Shown here: one piece after another, positions 3,238 to 28,120 of the stretch
How positions within the stretch are numbered: the stretch's first letter is position 1
Layout: every line of letters begins with the position of its first letter
Source of the DNA: a virus
Taxonomy: Duplodnaviria; Heunggongvirae; Uroviricota; Caudoviricetes
Virus record (IMG/VR): IMGVR_UViG_2690316278_000016
DNA length: 28,120 bases
Direction: 5' to 3' (one strand)
Position numbers and translations under genes: made by a program
Notes under the pieces: model-generated
The model's input: the letters and a program-made list of their open reading frames with translations, nothing else
Told to the model about the DNA's origin: nothing
The model's database searches: none

Positions 3238-3509
3238 GTATTCGTATTGAAATTGGCGAACGTTATGTCGTTACCAGTGACAGCTTCCAGTTTATTCTCC
3301 ACGAGAAAAAGAGAGCGGAAAGCGGTAAAAACGCCGGTCAGGAATGGCTGGCGGTGGTTGGTTATTACCCGAAATTAAGCCAGCTCGTTTCCGGCCTGAT
3401 GCATCACGATATTCTGACCGGAAGCGCAAAGTCTTTTGCTGATTTAAACGCGCAGGTTGAGCAACTCAGCAAGCGTTGTTCAGAGGCTTTTGGCTCATAT
3501 GGCCGTTAA
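3234..3509 (+). CDS. Hypothetical early protein (P2 orf83 position)
   Basis: 91-aa ORF, start overlaps previous stop, 3' end overlaps the A start. Confidence 0.45.
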   Translation: MSIRIEIGERYVVTSDSFQFILHEKKRAESGKNAGQEWLAVVGYYPKLSQLVSGLMHHDILTGSAKSFADLNAQVEQLSKRCSEAFGSYGR

Positions 3510-5796
3510 AGCCTCCGGGCGTTTTGTCCCTCCGTCAGCATTTGCTGCAGGCACCGGTAAGGCGTTTACCGGTGCTTATGCATGGAACGCGCCACGCGAG
3601 GCTGTCGGGCGCGAAAGACCCCTTACACGTGACGAGATGCGTCAGGTGCAAGGTGTTTTATCCACGATTAACCGCCTGCCTTACTTTTTGCGCTCGCTGT
3701 TTACGTCACGCTATGACTACATCCGGCGCAATAAAAGCCCGGTGCACGGGTTTTATTTCCTCACATCCACTTTTCAGCGTCGTTTATGGCCGCGCATTGA
3801 GCGTGTGAATCAGCGCCATGAAATGAACACCGACGCGTCGATGCTGTTTCTGGCTGAGCGTGACCACTATGCGCGCCTGCCGGGAATGAATGACAAGGAG
3901 CTGAAAAAGTTTGCCGCCCGTATCTCATCGCAGCTTTTCATGATGTATGAGGAACTCAGCGATGCCTGGGTGGATGCGCATGGCGAAAAAGAATCGCTGT
4001 TTACGGATGAGGCGCAGGCTCACCTCTATGGTCATGTTGCTGGCGCTGCACGTGCTTTCAATATTTCCCCTCTCTACTGGAAAAAATACCGTAAAGGACA
4101 GATGACCACGAGGCAGGCATATTCTGCCATTGCCCGTCTGTTTAACGATGAGTGGTGGATTAGTCAGCTTAAAGGCCAGCGTATGCGCTGGCATGAGGCG
4201 TTACTGATTGCTGTCGGGGAGGTCAATAAAGACCGTTCTCCTTATGCCAGTAAACATGCCATTCGTGATGTGCGTGCACGCCGCCAGGCAAATCTGGAAT
4301 TTCTTAAATCGTGTGATCTCGAAAACAGGGAAACAGGCGAGCGCATCGACCTTATCAGTAAGGTGATGGGCAGTATTTCTAATCCTGAAATTCGCCGGAT
4401 GGAGCTGATGAACACCATTGCCGGTATTGAGCGTTACGCCGCCGCAGAAGGTGATGTGGGGATGTTTATCACGCTGACCGCGCCGTCAAAGTATCACCCG
4501 ACACGTCAGGTTGGAAAAGGCGAAAGTAAAACCGTCCAGCTAAATCACGGCTGGAACGATGAGGCATTTAATCCAAAGGATGCGCAGCGTTATCTCTGCC
4601 GTATCTGGAGCCTGATGCGCACGGCATTCAAGGATAATGATTTACAGGTCTACGGTTTGCGAGTCGTCGAGCCACACCACGACGGAACGCCGCACTGGCA
4701 TATGATGCTTTTTTGTAATCCACGCCAGCGTAACCAGATTATCGAAATCATGCGTCGCTACGCGCTCAAAGAGGATGGCGACGAAAGAGGAGCTGCGCGA
4801 AACCGTTTTCAGGCAAAACATCTTAATCGGGGCGGTGCTGCGGGGTATATCGCGAAATACATCTCAAAAAATATCGACGGCTATGCACTGGATGGGCAGC
4901 TCGATAACGATAGCGGCAGACCGCTGAAAGATACTGCCGCGGCTGTTACCGCATGGGCGTCAACGTGGCGCATTCCGCAATTTAAAACGGTTGGCCTGCC
5001 GACAATGGGGGCTTACCGTGAACTACGCAAATTGCCTCGCGGCGTCAGCATTGCTGATGAGTTTGACGAGCGCGTCGAGGCTGCACGCGCCGCCGCAGAC
5101 AGTGGTGATTTTGCGCTGTATATCAGCGCGCAGGGTGGGGCAAATGTCCCGCGCGATTGTCAGACTGTCAGGGTCGCCCGTAGTCCGTCGGATGAAGTTA
5201 ACGAGTACGAGGAAGAAGTCGAGAGAGTGGTCGGCATTTACGCGCCGCATCTCGGCGCGCGTCATATTCATATCACCAGAACGACGGACTGGCGCATTGT
5301 TCCGAAAGTGCCGGTCGTTGAGCCTTTGACTTTAAAAAGCGGCATCGCCGCGCCTCGGAGTCCTGTCAATAACTGTGGAAAGCTCACTGGTGGTGATACT
5401 TCGTTACCGGCTCCCACACCTTCTGAGCACGCCGCAGCAGTGCTTAATCTGGTAGATGACGGTGTTATCGAATGGAATGACCCGGAGGTTGTGAGGGCGC
5501 TCAGAGGTGCATTAAAACACGGACTGAGAAGACCAAACCGTCAGCAAAGAAACGGAAGCCCGTTAAAACCGCATGAAATAGCGCCATCGGCCAGACTGAC
5601 CCGGTCGGAACGAATGCAAATTACCCGTATCCGCGTTGACCTTGCTCAGAACGGTATCAGGCCGCAGCGATGGGAGCTTGAGGTGCTGGCGCGTGGGGCA
5701 ACCGTAAATTATGACGGGAAAAAATTCACTTACCCGCTCGCTGATGAGTGGTCGGGATTCTCAACAGTATTAGAGTCAAACTCAGTGAAGCGTTAA
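3499..5796 (+). CDS. A: Rolling-circle replication initiation endonuclease (P2 gpA-like, HUH superfamily)
   Basis: About 765 aa from ATG 3499 (MAVKASGRF...); HUH motif PHWHMMLF and tyrosine motif GYIAKYISK visible in the translation. Confidence 0.88.
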   Translation: MAVKASGRFVPPSAFAAGTGKAFTGAYAWNAPREAVGRERPLTRDEMRQVQGVLSTINRLPYFLRSLFTSRYDYIRRNKSPVHGFYFLTSTFQRRLWPRIERVNQRHEMNTDASMLFLAERDHYARLPGMNDKELKKFAARISSQLFMMYEELSDAWVDAHGEKESLFTDEAQAHLYGHVAGAARAFNISPLYWKKYRKGQMTTRQAYSAIARLFNDEWWISQLKGQRMRWHEALLIAVGEVNKDRSPYASKHAIRDVRARRQANLEFLKSCDLENRETGERIDLISKVMGSISNPEIRRMELMNTIAGIERYAAAEGDVGMFITLTAPSKYHPTRQVGKGESKTVQLNHGWNDEAFNPKDAQRYLCRIWSLMRTAFKDNDLQVYGLRVVEPHHDGTPHWHMMLFCNPRQRNQIIEIMRRYALKEDGDERGAARNRFQAKHLNRGGAAGYIAKYISKNIDGYALDGQLDNDSGRPLKDTAAAVTAWASTWRIPQFKTVGLPTMGAYRELRKLPRGVSIADEFDERVEAARAAADSGDFALYISAQGGANVPRDCQTVRVARSPSDEVNEYEEEVERVVGIYAPHLGARHIHITRTTDWRIVPKVPVVEPLTLKSGIAAPRSPVNNCGKLTGGDTSLPAPTPSEHAAAVLNLVDDGVIEWNDPEVVRALRGALKHGLRRPNRQQRNGSPLKPHEIAPSARLTRSERMQITRIRVDLAQNGIRPQRWELEVLARGATVNYDGKKFTYPLADEWSGFSTVLESNSVKR

Positions 5797-5882
5797 CTCA
5801 ATAAATATGAGTTTATAAGTTAGGCCTCGAGATTTTGTAGAAAGGGATGTATACTGAGTATCGTATAGATTTGGAGTGAGTG

Positions 5883-6905
5883 ATGACTGTAAAGGTGATA
5901 GACCTTTTTTGTGGTGCTGGCGGATTAACTCATGGTTTGCAGCTTGCGGGGCTTGATGTCGTTGCAGGCATTGACCTTGAGGGGGAATGTAGGTTTCCCT
6001 ATGAAAGAAACAATAAATCTAAGTTTATTGAGCAAGATATCGCTAAAGTAACAAAAGAGGAACTGCTGAGGCTTTATGGTGATGCGTCTGTAAAAGTATT
6101 GGCAGGATGCGCACCTTGCCAACCTTTTTCAAAATATACTCAAGGAAAAGATAAGGCTGATGATAAAAAATGGCCTCTTCTTTATGAGTTCGAACGTTTA
6201 ATTCGCGAAGTATCTCCAGAAATCGTAACAATGGAGAACGTTCCTGATGTAACTAAACATAAAGTTTATAATGATTTTTATAATTCATTGTTAAAGTTGG
6301 GCTATTATGTTTGGGCGTCTAAGATTGATTGTGTCGAATATGGAATCCCACAAAACCGTTCCCGTCATGTATTGTTGGCCTCAAAATTGGGGGCGATTGA
6401 GTTAGTAAAACGTGACGATGTTATTTTGAAAACAGTTAGAGATGCAATAGGAAATCTTCCTCCATTAGAAGATGGCCAAACAGATCCAAATGATATATTA
6501 CATAGAGCCAGTAAATTAAATCCGATTAATAAAAAAAGAATTATACACTCTGTTCCTGGTGGTACATGGAAGGACTGGCCGAAAGAGTTGGTTGCCGCTT
6601 GTCATATGAAATCCAGCGGTAAAGGGTATGCTAGTGTATATGGGCGCATGTCTTGGGATAAGCCAAGTCCAACAATTACAACTCTTTGTTATGGTTTCGG
6701 GAATGGGCGTTTTGGACATCCAGAACAGCATAGAGCGATTTCTCTTAGAGAGGCTGCTTTATTGCAAACTTTCCCGATGGATTATATTTTTGTAGAAGAC
6801 AAAAACAAGTTTGTTATAAGAAGTATTGGGAAAATGATAGGTAATGCTGTTCCTGTGGAACTAGGAAAAGCAATTGGGCAATCAATCAAGAACCATTTAG
6901 AATGA
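5883..6905 (+). CDS. DNA (cytosine-5)-methyltransferase, complete
   Basis: Motif I FCGAGG, catalytic motif IV GCAPCQPFS, motif VI ENV, motif VIII QNRSR, C-terminal GNAVPVELG; GGAG RBS 6 nt upstream of ATG 5883; AT-rich codon usage unlike flanking phage genes. Confidence 0.88.
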   Translation: MTVKVIDLFCGAGGLTHGLQLAGLDVVAGIDLEGECRFPYERNNKSKFIEQDIAKVTKEELLRLYGDASVKVLAGCAPCQPFSKYTQGKDKADDKKWPLLYEFERLIREVSPEIVTMENVPDVTKHKVYNDFYNSLLKLGYYVWASKIDCVEYGIPQNRSRHVLLASKLGAIELVKRDDVILKTVRDAIGNLPPLEDGQTDPNDILHRASKLNPINKKRIIHSVPGGTWKDWPKELVAACHMKSSGKGYASVYGRMSWDKPSPTITTLCYGFGNGRFGHPEQHRAISLREAALLQTFPMDYIFVEDKNKFVIRSIGKMIGNAVPVELGKAIGQSIKNHLE

Positions 6906-6911
6906 TAAAAT

Positions 6912-6928
6912 GGCCTGCTTTACAGGCC
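6912..6928. terminator. Short hairpin between the convergent methyltransferase and HEPN genes (possible bidirectional terminator)
   Basis: GGCCTG-CTTTA-CAGGCC inverted repeat in the 29-bp gap between the two stop codons; stem is short and T-tracts are weak. Confidence 0.35.
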
Positions 6929-6934
6929 TTATAA

Positions 6935-7615
6935 CTATTGTTCTAAATATTCATTATTATTTATATAGTGCTCTATATTATTCACGATAGCATCAAGATA
7001 GGCGATTACTTCTAATGAAATATTCTCTAAGTCCTGATATGAAACATTTTTTCCAATCTCAGCAAATGATACATTGCCATGAGATAAATCATTACGATGT
7101 TGTTTAACAGTGGCTAATTTTTCACCATGTTTAGTGTGAGTGTAATCGGAATGTGTAGAAAAACCATATATTTTCGATTTTTCTTTGATTTCCTCTCTAT
7201 CAATATTTCCTGAGAATATTTTCTTTTTGTTGAACGTGCCATAAGATATACCGCAAGATATACCTTTGGTAAGGTGATTAACTAAACTTTCAACATTTAC
7301 AGATTCATTTTTTAATCTTTTTAATATTTCTGACCTGAGATTTTTCCTGAGTTTGTCAAATTCTACGTTTCTATCATAAATAGTCTCATGAATAAGGCAG
7401 ATAGCTTCTCTCATTGTTGATTCAATGAGGTTATATAACAGTATATATACTGCTCCCTTTAGAGTTTTTCGTGATTGAGCAGTAATGGAGAACTTATGTT
7501 CTTTATCATCAGCTGATATCAGTTCTGCACCGGCATACTCAATAAATTTCAAAAGATCCAAATAGGCCAAGATCTCTCCTGACCTTTCGTCAAAATCCTC
7601 ACGAAAACGATCCAT
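6935..7615 (-). CDS. HEPN-like domain protein (MAE_28990/MAE_18760-type), putative RNase effector
   Basis: 226 aa; C-terminal RNDLSHG fits the HEPN Rx4HG motif; start codon sits 1 nt after the upstream DUF262 gene stop (TAA-C-ATG). Confidence 0.6.
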   Translation of the reverse strand: MDRFREDFDERSGEILAYLDLLKFIEYAGAELISADDKEHKFSITAQSRKTLKGAVYILLYNLIESTMREAICLIHETIYDRNVEFDKLRKNLRSEILKRLKNESVNVESLVNHLTKGISCGISYGTFNKKKIFSGNIDREEIKEKSKIYGFSTHSDYTHTKHGEKLATVKQHRNDLSHGNVSFAEIGKNVSYQDLENISLEVIAYLDAIVNNIEHYINNNEYLEQ

Positions 7616-7616
7616 G

Positions 7617-8759
7617 TTAATCCTCTAATAATTTATCCCGAACATATTCAATTCGTTCAATTACCTTCACGCGACTATTAGCTCCGTCGGAAGTGGTCAA
7701 TCGTTTGAATTCTTCTGAGCTTAGCCAATCTAAGTTCTTGGGAACAAGGTCAGGGACTTCACGTAATGCAAGTGCTGCGCCAACAGCGAGAGATTCGAAT
7801 CTAACTCGAGGTGTAGATTTTGCAGTAATAGTTTTCTTGAATCCTGCTGGGAAATAGTTTTCAACAAAAGATAGAACATTAGCAAACTCTTGTTTCATTG
7901 AGTTTTGTTTAGTTTCGTCTATATCTCGATTTTCTGACATATAGTCATTTAGAAAATCCCGTACGGAATGATCAAAGTTCTTGTACTTATCTACGTAGGC
8001 AAAGAATCTTAATGTAAATTCTAACCGTTCATCTCGTTTTTCTTTAGTCTGAGATAAAGGTGCTAATTCTTTAAATTTAGGTATTGTTGAGCATGGCTTA
8101 ATAACCTGTGTATATAAATTTGTTGAACCAAGTTCTGATCCTTTACGGACTTCCATATCTTTCAATATATCGCTGCCAGAGTTAATACGCTCAAAAAGAT
8201 CTCTACGGGTTTCTTCATTGCATTTAGAACTCAATTCTATAACGCGGACAGGAATTCTCATGAAACGACGTTGACGTGATAATGGTAAATCTTGGAATTT
8301 GAAACCATTAAGGACGTCTAAAGATTTCAGGTCTTGTAAAACTAATTCATTTTGGATAAAAGCGTGTATAGTCCTAACTCGTTGTGAGCCATCAACAATC
8401 TCAATTCGCCCATCTAAATCGGGATCTTCGGAGAGAACATCTGCTATAAATATATATGGTATAGGAAAACCCAAAATCAAAGACTCTATCAATTTTGATT
8501 GTCTTTTTTCACTCCAAACAAAATCCCTTTGATAATCAGGAACAAAGAGTTCGTTAGTATCATCCTCTAATCCGTTATGATACTTATTAACTAATAACTC
8601 AACGGTAAATTCTTTGGTCTCAAAATCCACATCCTTTTGCTCAGCACGAATTTGCTCTTCAGCGTTTTGCTTTATCACCTCTAGCTGAGCAAGCAACTCT
8701 GCTCTTTTCTTGGCATTATCTTCATTTTCTAGTTGAGATTTTAAATCAATAATGTCCAT
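7617..8759 (-). CDS. DUF262 (ParB/Srx-like, GmrSD N-terminal-type) domain protein
   Basis: N-terminal DYQRDFVWS and IVDGSQRVRTI (DGQQR-type motif); ATG at 8759 with AAGGGAA RBS upstream, ORF track extends to a TTG at 8777; no obvious HNH/DUF1524 C-terminal motif. Confidence 0.7.
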   Translation of the reverse strand: MDIIDLKSQLENEDNAKKRAELLAQLEVIKQNAEEQIRAEQKDVDFETKEFTVELLVNKYHNGLEDDTNELFVPDYQRDFVWSEKRQSKLIESLILGFPIPYIFIADVLSEDPDLDGRIEIVDGSQRVRTIHAFIQNELVLQDLKSLDVLNGFKFQDLPLSRQRRFMRIPVRVIELSSKCNEETRRDLFERINSGSDILKDMEVRKGSELGSTNLYTQVIKPCSTIPKFKELAPLSQTKEKRDERLEFTLRFFAYVDKYKNFDHSVRDFLNDYMSENRDIDETKQNSMKQEFANVLSFVENYFPAGFKKTITAKSTPRVRFESLAVGAALALREVPDLVPKNLDWLSSEEFKRLTTSDGANSRVKVIERIEYVRDKLLED

Positions 8760-9103
8760 GTCTAGTTCCCTTAACAAGTGTTAAAAATTGAAGCGGATAG
8801 CATACCGCATAGATCATGAAAAATGCCATCATGTGCATGGATTTGCATGCGTCAGAAGTCGCTTTTATTGTTAGTTATCACTAGCGCTGGCGTGCTCTTG
8901 GAGTGTTCATGCAACTGCATTAAAACCGCCCCATGAAGCGGGCGGGCGAGGCGGGGAAAGCACTGCGCGCTGGCGGTGGTGCTGATTTTATTTTCCAGCG
9001 TCTCAGCGCGTCGTGACGGCGCTTAGTCTGCCCGTTGGGCGTTGGTGTGTCTGCGGGATTTTTTGTGCGGTGATGAGCGTGTGAGGGCGTGATGGCGGGG
9101 TGT

Positions 9104-9130: not shown

Positions 9131-10165
9131 TCAGCCGTTGTCAGTGTCCAGTGAGTAGTTTTTAAAGCGGATGACCTCCTGACCGAGCCAGCCGTTTATC
9201 TCGCGGATCCTGTCCTGTAACGGGATAAGCTCATTGCGGACAAAGACCTTTGCCACTTTCTCAATATCACCCAGCGACCCGACGTTCTCCGGCTTGCCCC
9301 CCATCAACTGAAAGGGGATGCGGTGCGCGTCCAGCAGGTCAGCGGCGCTGGCTTTTTTGATATTAAAAAAATCGTCCTTCGTTGCCACTTCACTGAGCGG
9401 GATAATTTTAATGCCGTCGGCTTTCCCCTGTGGGGCATAGAGAAACAGATTTTTAAAGTTATTGCGGCCTTTCGACTTAACCATGTTTTCGCGAAGCATT
9501 TCGATATCGTTGCGATCCTGCACGGCATCGGTGACGTACATGATGTATCCGGCATGTGCGCCGTTTTCGTAATACTTGCGGCGGAACAGCGTGGCCGACT
9601 CATTCAGCCATGCAGAGTTAAGGGCGCTGAGATATTCCGGCAGGCCGTACAGCTCCTGATTAATATCAGGCTCCAGCAGGTGAAACACGGAGCCGGGCGC
9701 GAAGGCTGTCGGCTCGTTGAAGGACGGCACCCACCAGTAAACATCCTCCTCCACGCCACGACGGGTATATTTGGCCGGTGAGGTTTCCAGTCTGATGACC
9801 TTACCGGTGGTGCTGTAACGCTTTTCCAGAAACGCATTACCGAACACCAGAAAATCCAGCACAAAACGGCTGAAATCCTGCTGGGAAAGCCACGGGTGCG
9901 GGATAAACGTTGAAGCCAGAATATTACGTTTGACGTAAATCGGTGAGCTGTGATGCACGGCAGCACGCAGGCTTTTTGCCAGACCGGTAAAGCTGACCGG
10001 CGGCTCATACCATCTGCCGTTACTGATGCACTCGACGTAATCCAGAATGTCACGGCGGTCGAGTACCGGCACCGGCTCACCAAAGGTGAATGCTTCCATT
10101 TTCGGGGCGCTGGCGGTGATTGTTTTTGCCGCAGGTCGCGGTGTTTTCCCTTTTTTCTTGCTCAT
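9131..10165 (-). CDS. Q: Portal protein (P2 gpQ-like)
   Basis: 344-aa ORF, same length as P2 Q, immediately downstream of the terminase with a TGATG stop/start overlap. Confidence 0.88.
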   Translation of the reverse strand: MSKKKGKTPRPAAKTITASAPKMEAFTFGEPVPVLDRRDILDYVECISNGRWYEPPVSFTGLAKSLRAAVHHSSPIYVKRNILASTFIPHPWLSQQDFSRFVLDFLVFGNAFLEKRYSTTGKVIRLETSPAKYTRRGVEEDVYWWVPSFNEPTAFAPGSVFHLLEPDINQELYGLPEYLSALNSAWLNESATLFRRKYYENGAHAGYIMYVTDAVQDRNDIEMLRENMVKSKGRNNFKNLFLYAPQGKADGIKIIPLSEVATKDDFFNIKKASAADLLDAHRIPFQLMGGKPENVGSLGDIEKVAKVFVRNELIPLQDRIREINGWLGQEVIRFKNYSLDTDNG

Positions 10166-11937
10166 CAGTAAAACTCCAGAATGGTGGATGTCAGCGGAGT
10201 GCTGATACCGGCGGTGAGTGGCTCATTTAACAGGGCGTGCATGGTTGCCCAGGCGAGGTCGGCGTGGCTGGCTTCCTCGCTGCGGCTGGCCTCATAGGTG
10301 GCACTGCGTCCGCTGCTGGTCATGGTCTTGCGGATAGCCATGAACGAGCTGGTGATGTCGGTGGCGCTGACGTCATATTCCAGACAGCCACGGCGGATGA
10401 CGTCTTTGGCCTTGAGCACCATTGCGGTTTTCATTTCCGGCGTGTAGCGGATATCGCGCGCGGCGGGATAGAACGAGCGCACGAGCTGGAACACGCCGAC
10501 ACCGAGGCCGGTGGCATCAATACCGATGTATTCGACGTTGTATTTTTCGGTGAGTTTGCGGATGGACTCCGCCTGGGTGGCAAAGTCCATGCCTTTCCAC
10601 TGGTGACGCTCAAGTATTCTGAATTTGCCACCGGCCACCACCGGCGGTGCCAGCACCACGCATCCGGCGCTGTCGCCACGGTGTGACGGGTCGTAACCAA
10701 TCCATACCGGGCGGGAGCCGAACGGATTTGCGGCAAACGGCGCGTAGTCTTCCCATTCTTCCAGCGTGTCGACCATGCAGCGTTGCAGCTCCTCGAACGG
10801 GAACACCGATACCTTGTCGTCAACAAATTCACACATGAACAGGTTTTTAAAATCGTCGGCGCTGTTTTCGCGTTTGAGCTGCTCAATGTCGAACAATGTG
10901 CAGCCGCCTTTCAGGGCGTCCTCAATGGTGACAATCTGCCGCCACTGGCCGTCCGCACAGAGAAGACCACCGGCAAGGGCGTTATGACTGACGTCGATTT
11001 CCACACGTTCGGCGGCGCTGGCGCGTCCCCGGTTGAACAGTTCACCCGACCAGAACGGGTAGGCGTCGTGCGCCAGCGTGGACGGGGTGGAGAAATAGGT
11101 CGAGCGCAGGTGACTCTGTGAGGCCATACCTGATGCCACCTTACGCAGTACCTGAAAATTCGGGATCCAGAAAATCTCGTCGACGTACAGGTCGCCGTTA
11201 TGGCTCTGTGCGGTGTTGGAGTTGGTGCCGAGAAAAATCAGTTTTGCGCCGTTATTGCCCAGGACAATCGGGTCACCGGTCAGGTCAACGTCAACCAGAC
11301 GAGCAAAGGCGATGATGTATTCACGGAACACATACGCCTGCGTTTTACTGGCCGACAGAAAAATCTGGTTATGGCCGGTTTTCAGGGCGCGCAGCAGCGC
11401 CTCGCGGGAAAAATAAAACGTCGCGCCAATCTGGCGGGATTTCAGGATATCGCGGATGCGGTGCTCAAGCCCGGCACGATACCAGTGCAACTGATAGTCG
11501 AAAGACTGCTCAAAGAAAATCTGCTCCAGCTTTTCGATGGCCTCGTCACTGAAAAAATTCTTTTTCGGTTTGCGACGCCCGCCTTTGTTGCGGTTAGCGA
11601 TGTTCGGATTAAGGTCTGCCTCGTTGCCGGTCTGGCTGTAGCGGTTTACCCGTGCCAGTCGTTCAATCTGGCGTCCGAGCAGGTCAATTTCCTTGAAGTC
11701 ACCGCCGGTTTTCTGCGGTTTGATGATGAGCTGGGTCAGCCGCGCTTCCAGACTCATTTCGACACGGCTGATGGGGGCAACACTGTCCCAGCCGTCGCGC
11801 TGTTTCCAGCTCTGCACCGTCGGGCGTTTCATCTGCAACATGGCGGCAATCTGCGGCACGGAAAACCCCTGCCAGTACAGCAGCGCCGCCTGACGACGCG
11901 GGTCGTGTAAAAGAGTGGTGTCTGTGGTGATGGTCAT
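10165..11937 (-). CDS. P: Terminase large (ATPase) subunit (P2 gpP-like)
   Basis: About 590 aa from ATG at 11937 (MTITTDTTLL...); ORF track's 600-aa version begins at an upstream non-ATG start. Confidence 0.88.
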   Translation of the reverse strand: MTITTDTTLLHDPRRQAALLYWQGFSVPQIAAMLQMKRPTVQSWKQRDGWDSVAPISRVEMSLEARLTQLIIKPQKTGGDFKEIDLLGRQIERLARVNRYSQTGNEADLNPNIANRNKGGRRKPKKNFFSDEAIEKLEQIFFEQSFDYQLHWYRAGLEHRIRDILKSRQIGATFYFSREALLRALKTGHNQIFLSASKTQAYVFREYIIAFARLVDVDLTGDPIVLGNNGAKLIFLGTNSNTAQSHNGDLYVDEIFWIPNFQVLRKVASGMASQSHLRSTYFSTPSTLAHDAYPFWSGELFNRGRASAAERVEIDVSHNALAGGLLCADGQWRQIVTIEDALKGGCTLFDIEQLKRENSADDFKNLFMCEFVDDKVSVFPFEELQRCMVDTLEEWEDYAPFAANPFGSRPVWIGYDPSHRGDSAGCVVLAPPVVAGGKFRILERHQWKGMDFATQAESIRKLTEKYNVEYIGIDATGLGVGVFQLVRSFYPAARDIRYTPEMKTAMVLKAKDVIRRGCLEYDVSATDITSSFMAIRKTMTSSGRSATYEASRSEEASHADLAWATMHALLNEPLTAGISTPLTSTILEFY

Positions 11938-13023: not shown

Positions 13024-14129
13024 ATGCGCCAGGAAACCCGCTTTAAATTTAATGCTTACCTGTCCCGTGTTGCCGAGCTGAACGGCATCGACGCCGGTGA
13101 TGTGTCGAAAAAATTCACCGTTGAACCGTCGGTCACCCAGACCCTGATGAACACCATGCAGGAGTCCTCTGACTTTCTGACCCGCATCAACATTGTGCCG
13201 GTCAGTGAAATGAAAGGGGAAAAAATTGGCATCGGTGTCACCGGCTCCATCGCCAGCACCACCGACACCGCCGGTGGCACCGAGCGTCAGCCGAAGGACT
13301 TCTCGAAGCTGGCGTCAAACAAGTACGAATGCGACCAGGTTAACTTCGATTTTTATATCCGCTACAAAACGCTTGACCTGTGGGCGCGTTATCAGGATTT
13401 CCAGCTCCGTATCCGTAACGCCATTATCAAACGCCAGTCCCTTGATTTCATCATGGCCGGTTTTAACGGCGTGAAGCGTGCCGAAACCTCTGACCGCAAC
13501 AGTAATCCGATGCTGCAGGATGTGGCGGTCGGCTGGCTGCAGAAATACCGAATGAAGCCCCGGCGCGCGTGATGAGCAAGGTCACTGACGAGGAAGGCCG
13601 CACCACCTCTGAGGTTATCCGCGTGGGTAAGGGCGGTGATTATGTAAGCCTCGATGNNNNNNNNNNNNNNNNNNNNNNNNNNNNNNNNNNNNNGGTGATG
13701 GATGCGACCAACAACCTGATTGAACCTTGGTATCAGGAAGACCCTGACCTTGTGGTGATTGTGGGGCGTCAGCTACTGGCGGACAAGTATTTCCCTATCG
13801 TCAACAAGGAGCAGGATAACAGCGAGATGCTGGCCGCTGACGTCATCATCAGCCAGAAACGCATCGGTAACCTGCCGGCGGTACGCGTCCCGTACTTCCC
13901 GGCGGATGCGATGCTCATCACGAAGCTGGAAAACCTGTCCATCTACTACATGGATGACAGCCATCGCCGCGTGATTGTGGAAAACCCGAAACTCGACCGC
14001 GTGGAGAACTACGAGTCAATGAACATTGATTACGTGGTGGAGGACTACGCCGCCGGTTGTCTGGTGGAAAAAATTAAGGTCGGTGATTTCTCCACACCGG
14101 CTAAAGCGACCGCAGAGCCGGGAGCGTAA
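13024..14129 (+). pseudogene. N: Major capsid protein (P2 gpN-like), reading frame broken near 13550 and containing a 37-nt N-gap (13657-13693)
   Basis: Two consecutive ORFs (13024-13572 and 13569-14129) in different frames together span about 368 codons, the expected size for gpN; may be a true frameshift or a sequencing indel. Confidence 0.75.
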
Positions 14130-14132
14130 CCG

Positions 14133-14876
14133 ATGACGAGTCCCGCACAGCGCCACATGATGCGGGTCTCGGCAGCGATGACCGCGCAGCGGGAAGCCGC
14201 CCCGCTGCGACATGCAACTGTCTATGAGCAGATGCTGGTCAAGCTGGCCGCAGACCAGCGCACACTGAAAGCGATTTATTCAAAAGAGCTGAAGGCCGCG
14301 AAAAAACGCGAACTGCTGCCGTTCTGGTTGCCGTGGGTGAACGGCGTGCTGGAGCAGGGCAAAGGTGCACAGGATGACATTCTGATGACGGTCATGCTGT
14401 GGCGTCTGGATACCGGCGATATTGCCGGTGCGCTGGAGATTGCCCGTTATGCCCTGAAGTACGGTCTGACCATGCCGGGTAAACACCGCCGCACCCCGCC
14501 GTACATATTCACCGAGGAGGTGGCGCTTGCGGCCATGCGCGCTCACGCTGCCGGTGAGTCTGTGGATCCCCGCCTGCTGACGGACACCCTCGAACTGACC
14601 GCCACGGCTGACATGCCTGATGAAGTGCGCGCAAAGCTGCACAAAATCACCGGTCTGTTTCTGCGTGACGCTGGTGATGCCGCAGGTGCGCTGGTACACC
14701 TGCAACGTGCGACACAGCTCGACTGTCAGGCAGGCGTCAAAAAAGAGATTGAACGACTGGAGCGGGAGCTGAAACCGAAGCCGGAGCCGCAGCCCAAAGC
14801 GGCCACCCGCACTCCGCGTAAGACCCGGAGCGTGACACCGGCAAAACGTGGACGCCCGAAAAAGAAAGCCAGTTAA
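14133..14876 (+). CDS. M: Terminase small/endonuclease subunit (P2 gpM-like)
   Basis: 247-aa ORF with basic Lys/Arg-rich C-terminus, position after capsid gene. Confidence 0.82.
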   Translation: MTSPAQRHMMRVSAAMTAQREAAPLRHATVYEQMLVKLAADQRTLKAIYSKELKAAKKRELLPFWLPWVNGVLEQGKGAQDDILMTVMLWRLDTGDIAGALEIARYALKYGLTMPGKHRRTPPYIFTEEVALAAMRAHAAGESVDPRLLTDTLELTATADMPDEVRAKLHKITGLFLRDAGDAAGALVHLQRATQLDCQAGVKKEIERLERELKPKPEPQPKAATRTPRKTRSVTPAKRGRPKKKAS

Positions 14877-17898: not shown

Positions 17899-18343
17899 GT
17901 TTAAGCGTTTTGAAGACAGGCTGACCGGACTTATTGAGTCGCTGTCACCGTCAGGGCGTCGGCGACTGAGCGCCGAACTGGCGAAACGTCTGCGTCAGAG
18001 TCAGCAGCGTCGGGTGATGGCACAGAAAGCCCCGGACGGCACACCCTACGCACCACGCCAGCAGCAGAGCGCCAGAAAAAAGACCGGTCGCGTTAAGCGA
18101 AAAATGTTTGCGAAACTTATCACCAGTCGTTTTTTGCATATCCGCGCCAGCCCTGAACAGGCATCAATGGAGTTTTACGGCGGGAAGTCACCGAAAATAG
18201 CCAGTGTGCATCAGTTCGGTCTGTCGGAAGAAACCCGGAAAGACGGTAAGAAAATTCATTATCCGGCGCGTCCCCTGCTCGGCTTTACCGGTGAGGATGT
18301 GCAGATGATTGAAGAGATTATCCTGGCTCACCTCGACCGTTAG
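17891..18343 (+). CDS. S: Tail completion protein S-like
   Basis: 150-aa ORF, size and position match P2 S. Confidence 0.8.
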   Translation: MNEFKRFEDRLTGLIESLSPSGRRRLSAELAKRLRQSQQRRVMAQKAPDGTPYAPRQQQSARKKTGRVKRKMFAKLITSRFLHIRASPEQASMEFYGGKSPKIASVHQFGLSEETRKDGKKIHYPARPLLGFTGEDVQMIEEIILAHLDR

Positions 18344-18409
18344 TTGTGCCATTCCTGACACCTCATCGTCACATTGCCGCCGGTATGACCCGGCGGCATC
18401 CTTCCCGTT

Positions 18410-19236
18410 ATGAACACTCTCGCAAATATTCAGGAACTCGCGCGCGCACTGCGCAACATGATCCGCACCGGCATTAAGGTCGGTTTCGACGATAATGCCG
18501 GTNNNNNNNNNNNNNNNNNNNNNNNNNNNNNNNNNNNNNNNNNNNNNNNNNNNNNNNNNNNNNNNNNNNNNNNNNNNNNNNNNNNNNNNNNNNNNNNNNN
18601 NNNNNNNNNNNNNNNNNNNNNNNNNNNNNNNNNNNNNNNNNNNNNNACACGGCAGCGACCGGCATTATCGTCGAAACCGACCTTAATGCCGGTCGCTGCC
18701 GTGTGCAGACCGGCGGCATGTGCACCGACTGGCTTCAGTGGCTGACCCATCGCGCCGGACGTTCGCGCACATGGTGGGCACCTTCCGTGGGGGAACAGGT
18801 GCTGATTCTGGCCGTAGGCGGTGAACTCGACACGGCGTTCGTTCTGCCGGGGATTTATTCCGGTGATAACCCCGCGCCGTCTGCGTCGGCGGATGCCCTG
18901 CATATCCGTTTCCCTGACGGGGCGGTGATTGAGTATGAACCTGAAACCAGTGCACTCACGGTAAGCGGAATTAAAACGGCCAGCGTGACGGCTTCTGATT
19001 CTGTTACTGCCACGGTGCCGGTGGTCACGGTGAAAGCATCAACCCGCGTCACTCTGGACACGCCGGAGGTGGTCTGCACAAACAAGCTGATCACTGGCAC
19101 GCTGGAAGTGCAGAAGGGCGGGACGATGCGCGGCAACATTGAACACACCGGCGGTGAACTCTCATCAAACGGGAAGGTACTGCATACCCATAAACACCCC
19201 GGCGACAGCGGCGGCACAACCGGGAGTCCTCTATGA
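18410..19236 (+). CDS. V: Baseplate spike/assembly protein V-like, interrupted by a 144-nt N-gap with inverted-duplicate flanks
   Basis: N-terminus MNTLANIQELARALRNMIRTGI before the gap, then ...GIIVETDLNAGRCRVQTGGMCTDWLQWL... to stop at 19236; true length probably about 211 aa once the gap/duplication is removed. Confidence 0.75.
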
Positions 19237-22764: not shown

Positions 22765-22775
22765 NNNNNNNNNNN

Positions 22776-25161
22776 TTCGCAGACCTGTCGCATGGTCATC
22801 ATCGTCAGCAGTGTGGCCTCGGTGGAGCTGACCATTGACACCACAACGGTGATGGCGACACAGGATTACGTTGATGACAAAATTGCAGAGCACGAACAGT
22901 CACGACGTCACCCGGACGCCTCGCTGACCGCAAAAGGCCTTGTCCAGCTCAGTAGTGCCACCAACAGCACGTCTGAAACGCTTGCGGCAACGCNNNNNNN
23001 NNNNNNNNNNNNNNNNNNNNNNNNNNNNNNNNNNNNNNNNNNNNNNNNNNNNNNNNNNNNNNNNNNNNNNNNNNNNNNNNNNNNNNNNNNNACCAACAGC
23101 ACGTCTGAAACACTGGCCGCAACGCCGAAAGCGGTAAAGGCCGCCTATGACCTTGCTAACGGGAAATACACTGCACAGGACGCCACTACAGCGCGAAAAG
23201 GTCTTGTCCAGCTCAGTANNNNNNNNNNNNNNNNNNNNNNNNNNNNNNNNNNNNNNNNNNNNNNNNNNNNNNNNNNNNNNNNNNNNNNNNNNNNNNNNNN
23301 NNNNNNNNNNNNNNNNNNNNNNNNNNNNNNNNNNNNNNNNNNNNNNNNNNNNNNNNNNNNNNNNNNNNNNNNNNNNNNNNNNNNNNNNNNNNNNNNNNNN
23401 NNNNNNNNNNNNNNNNNNNNNNNNNNNNNNNNNNNNNNNNNNNNNNNNNNNNNNNNNNNNNNNNNNNNNNNNNNNNNNNNNNNNNNNNNNNNNNNNNNNN
23501 NNNNNNNTGCCACTCTGACGGCGCTGGCGGGGCTTGCTACTGCGGCAGACAGGTTTCCGTATTTTACGGGGAATGATGTCGCCAGCCTGGCAACCCTGAC
23601 AAAAGTCGGGCGGGATATTCTTGCGAAATCGACCGTTGCCGCCGTTATCGAATACCTCGGTTTACAGGAAACGGTAAATCAGGCTTCTGGCGCATTACAG
23701 AAAAACCAGAACGGCGCAGATATTCCGGGGAAAGATACCTTCACCAAAAATATTGGTGCCTGCCGCGCATATAGCTCATGGCTGAATATTGGTGGCGATA
23801 GTCAGGTCTGGACAACCGCGCAATTTATTTCGTGGCTGGAGAGTCAGGGAGCATTTAACCATCCTTACTGGATGTGCAAAGGCTCATGGGCTTATGCAAA
23901 TAATAAGGTCATTACAGATACAGGTTGCGGAAATATTTGTCTTGCAGGTGCTGTGGTGGAAGTTATTGGCACTCGCGGCGCAATGACCATACGCGTTACC
24001 ACGCCGAGCACGTCCAGCGNNNNNNNNNNNAACGACCCGAATTTTGCGACCACCATGACTAACGCGCTTGCGGGTAAGCAACCGAAAGATGCCACCCTGA
24101 CGGCGCTGGCCGGACTTACTACTGCGGCAGGCAAGTTTCCGTATTTTACGGGGAATGATGTCGCCAGCCTGGCAACCCTGACAAAAGTCGGGCGGGATAT
24201 TCTTGCGAAATCGACCGTTGCTGCCGTTATCGAATACCTCGGTTTACGAGAACTCGGCACAAGCGGGGAGAAAATACCGTTACTCAGTACAGCGAATACC
24301 TGGACTAATCGACAAACATTCAGCGGTGGCCTTTCTGGTGAACTATCCGGCAATGCTTCTACAGCTGCAAAATTAAAAACTGCCAGGAAAATAAGCAATG
24401 TGGCTTTTGATGGTTCCTCCGATATCACATTAAAAGCAAGTCATGTTGGTGCGTTTGCCTTAGGGAAAACAGGAAGCACCGTTGCGAATGATAAAGCAGT
24501 TGGATGGAACTGGAGTAGCGGAGCCTATAACGCAACTATTAGTGGTGCATCAACGTTAATTATTCATTTTTATATGGGAGAAGGAAGTTGTCCTGCAGCT
24601 CAGTTTCGGATTAATTATAAAAATGGCGGTATTTTTTATCGTTCAGCCCGTGATGGTTATGGTTTTGAAGCCGACTGGTCCGAATTTTACACCACCAGAA
24701 AACCTTCAGCAGGAGATGTTGGTGCACTGCCGTTATCTGGTGGTCAACTGAATGGTGCACTGGGTATCGGAACATCCAGTGCTCTTGGCGGTAATTCGAT
24801 TGTATTGGGTGATAATGACACGGGCTTTAAACAAAAAGGCGATGGTAATCTGGATGTTTATGCTAATAACGTCCATGTTATGCGCTTTGTCTCCGGAAGC
24901 ATTCAAAGTAATAAAACCATAAATATTACGGGACGTGTTAATCCCTCGGATTACGGTAACTTTGATTCCCGCTATGTGAGAGATGTCAGACTTGGCACAC
25001 GAGTTGTTTAGACCATGAAGAAAGGCGTGATGTATGAAAAATCAGGCCATGTAATCACGGGGCTTGGTATTATCGGTGAAGTCGATGGTGATGATCCGGC
25101 AGTATTCAGACCAATACAAAAGTTAATTAACGGAACATGGTATAACGTATCGCAGGTATAA
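22776..25161 (+). pseudogene. H: Tail fibre mosaic: repeated blocks and two alternative C-terminal regions joined through four N-gaps; in-frame TAG at 25009-25011
   Basis: 22776-22940 duplicates 21393-21557; 23508-23660 and 24110-24250 are near-duplicates; C-terminal region ends ...RLGTRVV-TAG-TMKKGVMYEK...[17 protein letters not shown]-stop, same frame either side of the TAG. Confidence 0.55.
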
Positions 25162-25163
25162 TC

Positions 25164-25442
25164 ATGCAGCATTTAAAAAACATTGTCGCAGGTAATCCAA
25201 AAACCGTTGAACAATACCAGCTAACAAAGAATTTTGATGTTATCTGGTTATGGTCCGAAGATGGAAAAAATTGGCATGAGGAATTAAAAAACTTTCAGGA
25301 GGATACAATAAAACTGGCTTACACAGTTGAGGGAATAATTATTGCTATAGACAAGGATGTATCAGCAATTAATCCAGAAGGTTTAAGTGTCGTTGAGTTG
25401 CCTGATATTACAGCAAATCGCCGGGCTGATATTTCGGGCAAC
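25164..25442 (+). pseudogene. G: Tail fibre assembly protein (tfa, P2 gpG-like), 5' half only, truncated by IS3-family element
   Basis: N-terminus [22 protein letters not shown]...[13 protein letters not shown] is colinear with the two intact tfa paralogues downstream, then switches to transposase sequence after the n at 25444. Confidence 0.7.
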
Positions 25443-26582
25443 TNTGAAAATCAACTTTCGATCAGTGAAGGCGCTTCCCGATTATCTCTTCCTGAAGGCA
25501 CTTTAGGACAATGGGTTACCGCCGCCAGAAAAGGGCTCGGTACTCCTGGTTCCCGCACGGTGGCTGAACTGGAATCTGAAATTCTGCAACTGCGTAAGGC
25601 GTTAAATGAAGCTCGCCTTGAGCGAGATATATTAAAAAAAGCAACAGCGTATTTTGCACAGGAGTCGCTGAAAAATACGCGTTAATCGAACAATGGCGAC
25701 AACAATTTCCCATTGAAGCGATGTGTCAGGTATTTGGTGTATCCAGGAGCGGTTATTACAACTGGGTACAGCATGAACCCTCAGACAGAAAACAAAGTGA
25801 TGAGCGGCTAAAACTGGAGATTAAGGTGGCACATATCCGCACTCGCGAAACATATGGAACCCGGCGGCTCCAGACGGAGCTGGCAGAGAATGGCATCATC
25901 GTTGGTCGTGACCGACTGGCACGTCTTCGTAAGGAGCTAAGGCTACGCTGTAAGCAGAAACGCAAGTTCAGAGCGACTACGAACTCGAACCACAATCTGC
26001 CAGTTGCGCCAAATCTGCTGAACCAGACGTTCGCTCCTACAGCACCAAATCAGGTCTGGGTGGCGGACCTGACGTATGTTGCCACACAGGAGGGATGGTT
26101 GTACCTCGCTGGCATCAAAGATGTTTATACGTGCGAAATTGTCGGCTACGCCATGGGAGAGCGCATGACAAAAGAGCTGACAGGTAAAGCCCTGTTTATG
26201 GCGCTCAGGAGCCAGCGCCCACCTGCCGGGCTAATCCACCACTCTGATCGAGGTTCACAGTACTGCGCATACGATTACCGGGTCATACAGGAGCAGTCTG
26301 GTCTGAAAACATCAATGTCGCGTAAAGGTAACTGTTACGACAACGCTCCGATGGAAAGCTTCTGGGGAACGCTGAAAAATGAGAGCCTGAGCCACTATCG
26401 TTTTAATAACCGGGATGAAGCCATCTCAGTAATACGGGAATACATTGAGATTTTCTACAATCGTCAGCGTCGTCACTCTCGTCTGGGGAATATCTCCCCG
26501 GCAGCCTTCAGGGAAAAATATCATCAGATGGCTGCTTAAAAAAAGAACAAATGGTAGTGTCCGCTATTGCCAGTACACCTCA
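25443..26582 (+). mobile_element. IS3-family insertion sequence, apparently 5'-truncated (orfA lacks its first ~20-25 codons and no left inverted repeat or UTR is present)
   Basis: orfA-like frame to stop at 25683-25685 (…WVTAARKG…ILKKATAYFAQESL), A7 slippery run at 25634-25640, orfB in the -1 frame to 26539 with DDE/rve-like residues (WVADLTYV, HSDRGSQY, YDNAPMESFW); boundaries approximate. Confidence 0.75.
25634..25640 (+). promoter_or_regulatory. Programmed -1 ribosomal frameshift site (A AAA AAA) for the OrfAB transposase fusion
   Basis: Heptamer lies in the orfA frame just before the orfA stop; the -1 frame is open from here into orfB. Confidence 0.55.
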
Positions 26583-26851: not shown

Positions 26852-27564
26852 ATGATGCACTTAAAAAACATTTCTGCTGGTAATCCTGAAACAAAAGAGC
26901 AATACCAGCTAACGAAACAATTTAACATCAAATGGCTTTATACAGAGGATGGGAAAAACTGGTATGAGGAACAAAAGAACTTTCAGCCTGATACGTTGAA
27001 AATGGTCTATGACCACAACGGCGTTATTATTTGTATTGAAAAGGATGTTTCAGCAATTAATCCGGAAGGCGCAAGCGTCGTTGAGGTTCCTGATATTACA
27101 GCAAATCGCCGGGCTGATATTTCAGGTAAATGGATGTTCAAAGATGGCGTAGTGATAAAGCGAACTTATACCGGGGAAGAGCAGAGGCAACAAGCGGAAA
27201 ATGAAAAGCAAAGCCTGCTACAGCTNNNNNNNNNNNNNNNNNNNNNNNNNNNNNNNNNNNNNNNNNNNNNNNNNNNNNNNNNNNNNNNNNNNNNNNNNNN
27301 NNNNNNNNNNNNNNNNNNNNNNNNNNNNNNNNNNNNNNNNNNNNNNATACCGGGGAAGAGCAGAGGCAACAAGCGGAAAATGAAAAGCAAAGCCTGCTAC
27401 AGCTCGTCAGGGATAAAACCCAGCTATGGGACTCACAGCTACGGCTGGGCATTATTTCCGACGAGAATAAACAAAAATTAACCGAGTGGATGCTCTATGC
27501 GCAGAAGGTCGAATCCACAGACACCTCCAGCCTGCCAGTAACGTTTCCCGAACAACCAGAATGA
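26852..27564 (+). CDS. Tail fibre assembly protein (tfa paralogue 2), containing an N-gap with duplicated flanks
   Basis: N-terminus [22 protein letters not shown]...[20 protein letters not shown]; gap at 27226-27346 is flanked by an identical ~59-bp sequence on both sides. Confidence 0.75.
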
Positions 27565-27567
27565 AAC

Positions 27568-27594
27568 AAGGCCCGATATCGGGCCTTAATTTTT
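27568..27594. terminator. Palindromic hairpin with T-run between convergent tfa genes (bidirectional terminator)
   Basis: AAGGCCCGATATCGGGCCTT perfect palindrome at 27568-27587 followed by AATTTTT. Confidence 0.6.
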
Positions 27595-28120
27595 ACTCAG
27601 GCTTTTGTGGCCATTCTGGCTTTGCCGTATCCACACGGCTGACCAGAACACTGTAGCGTTCCCATGCTTCCAGTCGTGTGCGTTCCTCGTCCGTCGCCAT
27701 ATTCAGCCTGACAGCGCGTTCCAGCGGCTGGATGACTGATTCAGCTTCGGAAAGCAATGCGGCCTTTTGTGATTCGGCCTGTTGTTGCTGTTCGTCAGCC
27801 GTATAAATCCGTTTAACCACAGCTCCGTCCTTAAACATCCACTTACCGGAATCATCAGCACGACGATTAGCTGTAATATCAGGAACCTCAACGACGCTAT
27901 AACCTTCAGGGTTAAGCGTGGAGGCATCTTTGGTGATGGCGACAATAATATTATTTGCATCGTAAACAATCTTTATTGTGTCTGGCTGAAAGTTCTTCAC
28001 TTCCTCATACCAGTTTTTTCCGTCCTCAGAGTAAAGCCAGATGACTCCGTGCTTCTTTGTTAACTCATACTGCTCCACTGTTTTAGCATTACCTGCTTTT
28101 ATGTTCTTTAAGTGCATCAT
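27593..28120 (-). CDS. Tail fibre assembly protein (tfa paralogue 3), opposite strand, complete
   Basis: 175 aa, [22 protein letters not shown]...[20 protein letters not shown]; start codon at the last 3 bases of the window. Confidence 0.8.

Follow-up and report, generated by a model that had tools for sequence, protein, structure and literature searches.

A mobile cassette of C5-cytosine methylase, DUF262 and HEPN genes beside cos in the A-Q interval of a P2-like prophage

The interval between the replication gene A and the portal gene Q of P2-like prophages is a published hotspot of defence systems (PMC9122126, PMC9519451), as the first-pass annotation of the DNA treated here had held. We describe the three genes that occupy this interval in the virus record IMGVR_UViG_2690316278_000016, whose whole stretch of 28,120 nucleotides is called the window: a C5-cytosine DNA methyltransferase (methylase) gene on the plus strand and, on the minus strand, an operon for a DUF262 (ParB-like NTPase) protein and a HEPN protein. 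The three genes are a real unit, inherited and transferred together, and the cassette is self-contained, horizontally mobile and located beside cos in a P2-like prophage. It belongs to a class already predicted in 2013 and listed for the same locus in 2022, and is not of a new kind.

The gene neighbourhood of a MAE_28990 HEPN gene, a ParB gene and a DNA-methylase gene appears in Table 1 of Anantharaman et al. 2013 (PMC3710099), where it was proposed that PrrC-like backup RNases are attached to restriction-modification (R-M) systems. The cassette agrees with that class in its HEPN family (PF18737) and active Rx4-6H motif, in having a ParB-superfamily (DUF262) gene within the operon and in a neighbouring DNA methylase gene, here 29 bp from the HEPN stop. 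It differs in that the class was drawn from comparative genomics alone, with the ParB protein taken as a DNase and with no phage-borne context, specificity or test. The gpA-gpQ hotspot was defined by Rousset et al. 2022 (PMC9122126), and the arrangement of the trio stands in their Table S5A, under group #2, 'RM-like system', of Table S5B. The locus and the three Pfam families are the same as here, but the entry was only catalogued and lies outside their validated systems (PMC9122126). The methylase listed there, WP_001697730, is the one annotated in a 97.6%-identical Escherichia coli hit, this one accession being the link between catalogue and cassette. The novelty that the first-pass annotation had expected of the module does not survive these two tables.

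One of the closest systems with experimental support is PD-T4-2, a two-gene DUF262 and HEPN system from E. coli strain ECOR65 that defends against T4 both natively and when cloned; four of the systems in the same study lie in the same P2 slot (Vassallo et al. 2022, PMC9519451). The cassette DUF262 protein matches PD-T4-2_A (E 2.5e-35, residues 79-378). However, both PD-T4-2 open reading frames (ORFs) lie within 1540 bp, as against 1825 bp here, its HEPN protein is much smaller than the 226 aa (amino acids) of ours, the cloned system has no methylase, and the cassette DUF262 protein scores higher against NsnA (E 1.7e-54, residues 17-380 on positions 25-376 of a 385-position profile). NsnA belongs to Menshen (NsnABC; Millman 2022; Li et al. 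2025, PMC12065111), with which the cassette has in common an NsnA-type ParB-DUF262 protein with a helical DNA-binding domain and a proposed sensor role. The NsnB ATPase and the NsnC inPIN-nuclease are missing here; no ATPase gene was found in the island, where the only gene downstream of DUF262 is that of HEPN, and a methylase is attached. Assignment of the cassette to PD-T4-2 or Menshen was rejected, since the HEPN protein matches no PADLOC model (none at E <= 10, PD-T4-2_B included). The PADLOC models do not cover the cassette, and automated annotation would call no system.

DUF262 is the sensor in GmrSD and SspE, and SspE is a precedent for a DUF262 protein that reads a self-written DNA modification. 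The cassette protein carries the motifs QRxxxW, DGxQR and FxxxN of the GmrSD, BrxU and SspE group, and its best structural matches are BrxU and SspE. It differs from that group in having no DUF1524/HNH domain, in a separate HEPN effector and in a mark that would be 5-methylcytosine (m5C) and not phosphorothioate or glucosyl-hydroxymethylcytosine. With type II R-M systems the cassette shares a cognate methyltransferase (PF00145; PADLOC MTase_II, E 6.7e-89). As in PrrC-EcoprrI and RloC, a HEPN RNase is genetically tied to a DNA-modification system and could be an abortive second line of defence, but the cassette has neither type I R-M subunits nor an ABC ATPase domain on HEPN, and is linked instead to a lone C5 methylase and DUF262. 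The tin and old genes of P2, which are lysogen-expressed exclusion genes, occupy the same cos-proximal A-Q slot, but their proteins are unrelated.

The island and its genes

The window is a P2-like prophage with an integrase gene at 1-1011, followed by gpA and the portal gene Q, and with terminase, capsid and tail genes after Q. The gpA-gpQ interval contains exactly three long genes, those of the methylase, the HEPN protein and the DUF262 protein, and tin and old are absent from it (coordinates in Table 1). The first-pass annotation had drawn an island at 5797-8925 with these three genes in place of tin and old, and this is borne out: gpA (PF05840) and the portal (PF04860) flank it, the ORFs, strands and domains agree, profile hidden Markov models support all three domain assignments (DUF262, HEPN and methyltransferase), and position 8925 falls just short of GGCGAGGCGGGGAAAGCAC at 8945-8963, which we take to be the P2 cos sequence and which makes a natural right boundary. 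In isolated P2-like phages the matches sit at the ends of linear records, in agreement with a cos site at this position. The location between gpA and gpQ and beside cos is that of P2 hotspot cargo, and E. coli homologues are annotated alike. The higher AT content claimed for the island was also found: the guanine plus cytosine (GC) fraction is 0.358 in 5797-8790 and 0.529 in the rest of the window, and the minimum of 120 other segments of equal length is 0.445. An Rfam scan of the island returned no RNA family, and a repeat search of it no flanking repeats of note.

The catalytic motifs of the methylase are all intact, including the PCQ motif with the catalytic Cys79, and besides MTase_II the protein matches the PADLOC model DrmMII (E 1.2e-90). 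Across 37 diverse trios the target-recognition region (about residues 195-300) is conserved to a degree equal to or above that of the catalytic core, which suggests one specificity, matched to the sensor and kept across phyla. Such conservation is unlike that of ordinary type II systems and fits a reader protein matched to a fixed mark. Assignment of the specificity from solved structures was tried and given up, since the best matches, M.HaeIII for the N-terminal half and DNMT1 for the C-terminal part, are both too distant for a motif to be assigned.

The HEPN protein has the Rx4H motif RNDLSH at residues 174-179, the R, N and H of which are invariant in 26 homologues with identities as low as 34%, and the HEPN fold was confirmed structurally. 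In the DUF262 protein the motifs QRDFVW, DGSQR and FERIN are invariant in 23 homologues. Its model is of moderate quality (predicted local distance difference test, pLDDT, 76.5), and Foldseek matched it to BrxU (7p9k, prob 0.98), SspE (6jiv, prob 0.95) and ParB CTPase domains (range 0.95-0.99). The C-terminal half is all-helical in the model and resembles the DNA-binding 'ParBDB' domain of NsnA; beyond residue 212 there is no Pfam match and no DUF1524/HNH domain, and the model has only helices after the ParB domain. A weak match to the PADLOC 'Type II restriction enzyme' model PDLC03418 (E 9.4e-6) was also obtained. With 380 aa the protein is shorter than the PADLOC HEC-05/06 and SspE profiles (~560-770). 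In PHROGs both proteins of the pair are of 'unknown function'.

A single base lies between the stop codon of DUF262 and the start codon of HEPN (GAGGAT TAA C ATG), and GAGGA falls within the last DUF262 codons; with this spacing the two genes constitute a translationally coupled operon. The methylase gene converges with this operon, and the 29-bp gap between the methylase and HEPN 3' ends contains a GC-rich hairpin that is likely a bidirectional terminator. The promoter of the operon must be sought in the stretch upstream of it, 8760-8944, but a consensus scan found none there, and promoter-like sites in the region are no more numerous than in shuffles. Two terminator-like hairpins on the minus strand, at 9125-9110 and 8945-8926, shield the operon from late transcription of Q.

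Occurrence and inheritance of the trio

A pattern scan with one genome per species gave 410 stretches encoding a HEPN relative, of which 80 loci were fetched. DUF262 lies directly upstream of HEPN in all 80, in some of them fragmented, and in 36, from gammaproteobacteria and cyanobacteria, HEPN adjoins at its 3' end a convergent gene for an orthologous C5 methylase (phmmer E ~1e-115 to 1e-130), which sometimes overlaps it; in two Acidobacteria the methylase is upstream and in the same direction. Every enterobacterial locus sampled has the orthologous methylase. The trio resides on P2-like prophages of E. coli with two backbones and in the same A-Q slot of Salmonella 186/P2-like prophages. A second, divergent P2-hotspot lineage is represented by one locus (L097) and by the isolated phage P24B2. 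Outside P2-like elements it was found in Klebsiella lambdoid prophages, flanked by the replication/nin genes and the antiterminator, and in two E. coli lambdoid prophages (L098 and L099, 3347-6208), directly after antiterminator Q and ahead of the lysis genes. The slot downstream of antiterminator Q is the one where Stx phages carry stx. Moraxella catarrhalis phages carry the trio beside the CI repressor gene, Pseudomaricurvus carries it in an integrase island and Photobacterium in an islet adjoining a group II intron. In Brasilonema bromeliae it lies next to a XisA/XisC-type recombinase gene between nitrogenase-like (Oxidored_nitro) genes (L093, 5415-8238), apparently as cargo of a developmentally excised, nif-interrupting element of this heterocystous cyanobacterium. 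Whether the genes travel together was a check named in the first-pass annotation, and they do: P2-like and lambdoid phages, phages of Moraxella and non-phage islands all carry the same convergent trio, across three phyla.

Two features of the Salmonella loci may be recorded here. In one Salmonella enterica locus (L089) an insertion sequence (IS) with an rve-family transposase is inserted exactly between HEPN and the methylase (9933-10973) and so parts their convergent 3' ends, the cassette being otherwise intact. In two 186/P2-like prophages (L087 and L088) a Dam-like (MethyltransfD12) methylase gene is located directly upstream of gpA (~13970-14827), which gives each element two different DNA methylases.

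In complete E. coli genomes a related methylase is present in 187/5426 (~3%), with the convergent trio in the five loci opened out of five; the lambdoid lineage appears to account for most of these 187. A methylase more than 80% identical was found in nine of the 5426, all nine with the trio. In Table S5B a near-identical methylase stands under two further systems, and next to a different HEPN protein there is a DUF262 protein almost identical to ours. A reading of these entries as partner swapping was rejected because the sequences in that table appear to be cluster representatives. The rarity supposed in the first-pass annotation holds for close copies in complete E. coli genomes but not overall, since about 700-800 contigs, bearing the names of Shigella sonnei and other Enterobacteriaceae, encode the exact cassette proteins. 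As for chromosomal housekeeping loci, distant relatives of the pair that lack the methylase adjoin housekeeping genes in Nostocales, which does not refute the reading of this cassette as mobile cargo.

Pairwise distances of the three proteins correlate, with r = 0.97 between DUF262 and methylase and 0.92 both between DUF262 and HEPN and between HEPN and methylase (Mantel p = 0.001 each). Shared species phylogeny contributes to these values, although co-transfer is the simpler reading because the cassette sits in unrelated mobile elements. HEPN diverges fastest across lineages: the P24B2 type has 72-73% identity to the window in the methylase, 45% in DUF262 and 30% in HEPN, and the lambdoid type 52%, 47% and 29%, respectively. 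In a neighbour-joining tree of DUF262 the deepest branches include methylase-linked loci, whereas the methylase-less state is confined to one derived cyanobacterial clade and one isolated loss (L015/L016); the ancestral state is not methylase-less. When DUF262 proteins linked to a methylase are compared with those that are not, 103 conserved positions are common to both groups, all the NTPase motifs among them, and nine positions discriminate between the groups, eight in the C-terminal half; this small signal is a hint at most.

Coordinates and other features of the window

The features of the island and of the remainder of the window are collected in Table 1. The N runs, 713 bases in all, are located at 13657-13693, 18503-18646, 22765-22775, 22994-23091, 23219-23507, 24020-24030 and 27226-27346, mostly inside the tail-fibre gene. 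A second, stranger AT-rich island at 23001-23500 (apparent GC 0.14) and another at 18251-18750 (apparent GC 0.40) were rejected as artefacts of these masked runs, which the composition tool counts in its denominator. Between the tail-completion and baseplate genes two overlapping ORFs have no Pfam match and one marginal PHROG match to a baseplate protein, in a stretch that includes the 144-base N run. An IS3-family insertion (25164-26539) lies just downstream of the tail-fibre gene H, with the genes for tail-fibre assembly following it. The insertion may have interrupted the fibre/assembly region, and fits an IS-rich host such as Shigella. At the window end two Caudo_TAP tail-fibre assembly genes face each other, a layout reminiscent of invertible segments that govern host range, like the G segment of Mu or the C segment of P1.

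Table 1. Position, strand and supporting evidence of the features of the window (aa, amino acids).
Feature	Coordinates	Strand	Evidence and remarks
P2 replication endonuclease gpA	3457..5796	+	PF05840 E 2e-123; left hotspot boundary; E. coli homologues annotated 'replication endonuclease'
Promoter-like site TCGAGA-17-TATACT upstream of methylase	5827..5855	+	consensus scan, 9/12 matches; weak
C5-cytosine DNA methyltransferase, 340 aa	5883..6905	+	PF00145 E 3.4e-58; TIGR00675 (dcm) E 1.5e-37; GTG ORF from 5880
Methylase motif I, DLFCGAGG	5901-5924	+	
Methylase catalytic PCQ	6114-6122	+	Cys79
Methylase ENV	6234-6242	+	
Methylase GNAVP	6840-6854	+	
GC-rich hairpin GGCCTG-cttta-CAGGCC in methylase/HEPN gap	6912..6928	.	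sequence; terminator-like site on - strand
HEPN protein, MAE_28990 family, 226 aa, predicted RNase effector	6935..7615	-	PF18737 E 5.8e-29 (above gathering score); PF18735 E 8e-9
HEPN Rx4H motif RNDLSH	7079-7096	-	
DUF262 (ParB-like NTPase) protein, helical C-terminal domain, 380 aa, predicted DNA sensor	7617..8759	-	PF03235 GmrSD_N E 8.2e-26; TTG ORF to 8777
DUF262 motif FERIN	8181-8195	-	
DUF262 motif DGSQR	8379-8393	-	
DUF262 motif QRDFVW	8514-8531	-	
Upstream region of DUF262-HEPN operon	8760..8944	-	expected promoter stretch
Presumed P2-type cos site GGCGAGGCGGGGAAAGCAC	8945..8963	.	exact string match; right boundary of cargo island
Portal protein gpQ	9131..10165	-	PF04860 E 3.3e-14; right flank; homologues annotated 'phage portal protein'
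Overlapping ORFs, 111 aa (+) and 157 aa (-)	18410-18903	+ and -	
Tail-fibre gene H	22792-25011		
IS3-family HTH_Tnp_1 ORF	25164-25685		
IS3-family rve integrase-core ORF	25721-26539		
Tail-fibre assembly gene	26852-27481	+	Caudo_TAP
Tail-fibre assembly gene	27593-28120	-	Caudo_TAP

Function of the cassette and alternative readings

Because published work shows the hotspot to be rich in defence systems and PD-T4-2 gives a precedent for DUF262 with HEPN, we infer a role in defence. By analogy with the systems compared above, the cassette is most likely a methylation-linked sensor and effector, carried as mobile three-gene cargo that protects the lysogen against other phages, and we would give this proposal an even chance of being right. 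The methylase would write m5C at one fixed motif of resident DNA and so mark it as self. The DUF262 protein would bind DNA through its C-terminal domain and use NTP hydrolysis to read the modification status, in analogy to GmrSD, BrxU, SspE and NsnA. Foreign DNA, lacking the mark or bearing another cytosine modification, would lead DUF262 to switch on its partner HEPN RNase, which would cut tRNA or mRNA and so halt the phage, probably by sacrificing the infected cell. The methylase would then tune self-tolerance and would not be an absolute antidote. A more specific form of the proposal is epigenetically gated RNase immunity, in which the m5C mark, read by the DUF262 NTPase, restrains or licenses a separate HEPN RNase, with an RNA-targeting abortive effector and no DNA endonuclease; self would be distinguished from non-self by the logic of restriction-modification. 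This we put forward tentatively and with some doubt.

A number of observations weigh against a methylation-linked defence cassette. The methylase is not obligatory: a monophyletic cyanobacterial clade keeps the pair without it, and when a conserved third gene was sought at the loci of this clade none was found, the neighbours being housekeeping genes such as those of aconitase and ClpB. Outside that clade, one locus (L015) keeps only methylase residues 248-330 and another (L016) none, with full-length DUF262 and HEPN ORFs in both, and in the phage P24B2 (Peduovirus; L095, 2021-3041) the methylase gene, 72-76% identical to that of the window, is frameshifted near residue 227 while DUF262 and HEPN are intact, a frameshift that could be a real pseudogene or a sequencing error. 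The action of HEPN on RNA is assumed by analogy with its family, and as PD-T4-2_B is left unmatched by the cassette HEPN protein, function is transferred from PD-T4-2 by architecture only. An 'RM-like' construct from E. coli W, pFR107, which has another methylase and other partners, gave no protection against eight phages (PMC9122126), and literature searches found no experimental study of the trio in the collection of papers that they covered. Decay of the opposite kind occurs at one locus (L082), where the methylase is intact and DUF262 and HEPN are fragmented.

The loss of the methylase bears at the same time on the rival explanations. In a classical R-M system with a suicide backup, as proposed for R-M-linked HEPN genes by Anantharaman et al. 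2013 (PMC3710099, Table 1 and text), DUF262 would be a DNase acting on unmethylated DNA, the methylase would protect the host and HEPN would be a PrrC-like second line, kept latent by the R-M proteins and freed when a phage blocks restriction. An R-M unit would fit the convergent layout and the co-inheritance of the methylase with its partners, the label 'RM-like system' given to the group by Rousset 2022 and the weak match of the DUF262 region to PDLC03418. Nevertheless, no recognisable nuclease domain (DUF1524/HNH) accompanies DUF262, which in solved relatives is an NTPase sensor and not a nuclease, and the methylase has been lost at least three times with full-length partner ORFs, a loss that an active restriction enzyme should not tolerate. 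Tolerated loss argues against a classical restriction enzyme that destroys unmethylated self DNA, and because the methylase is dispensable in some lineages the logic of the cassette is probably not that of classical restriction-modification. We consider this explanation unlikely.

The same dispensability could be taken to mean that two independent modules share one hotspot, namely a pair that senses modified phage DNA in the manner of PD-T4-2 or of type IV systems, and an orphan methylase that shields phage or host DNA from other restriction systems. PD-T4-2 functions without a methylase, a whole clade of the pair lacks one, orphan methylases are frequent in P2/186-like phages (for instance the Dam-like gene beside gpA in L087), and the genes are on opposite strands with separate promoters. 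It is hard to reconcile with independence, however, that the methylase keeps its abutting convergent position across three phyla and on six or more kinds of mobile element, that distance matrices correlate at r = 0.97, and that the methylase-less state is one derived clade plus isolated losses and not ancestral; we judge independent modules to be quite improbable. An addiction module would stabilise the prophage or island by post-segregational killing, with no anti-phage role and with the HEPN toxin checked by DUF262, methylation or both. HEPN proteins are common as toxins of toxin-antitoxin pairs, the cassette is always on mobile elements, and R-M-like units can behave selfishly. Yet validated defence systems dominate the hotspots, PD-T4-2 and Menshen, which are the nearest relatives with a validated function, serve in defence, and a vertically stable methylase-less pair beside housekeeping genes in Nostocales is unexpected of an addiction module for a mobile element, which makes this explanation very improbable indeed.

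If the methylation-linked cassette is active, it would show how a ParB-like NTPase sensor can couple a DNA methylation mark to an RNase effector, a link that no validated system has yet demonstrated: SspE reads phosphorothioate and cuts DNA, and PrrC requires a type I R-M complex. With its 3 kb the cassette is compact; it is also intact, and its exact proteins are present on hundreds of Shigella and other Enterobacteriaceae contigs. Were it to test positive, the inventories of enterobacterial prophages would gain a defence system that is common but at present uncounted. Moreover, the proposed mechanism, if true, could explain part of the superinfection immunity that P2-like and lambdoid prophages confer.

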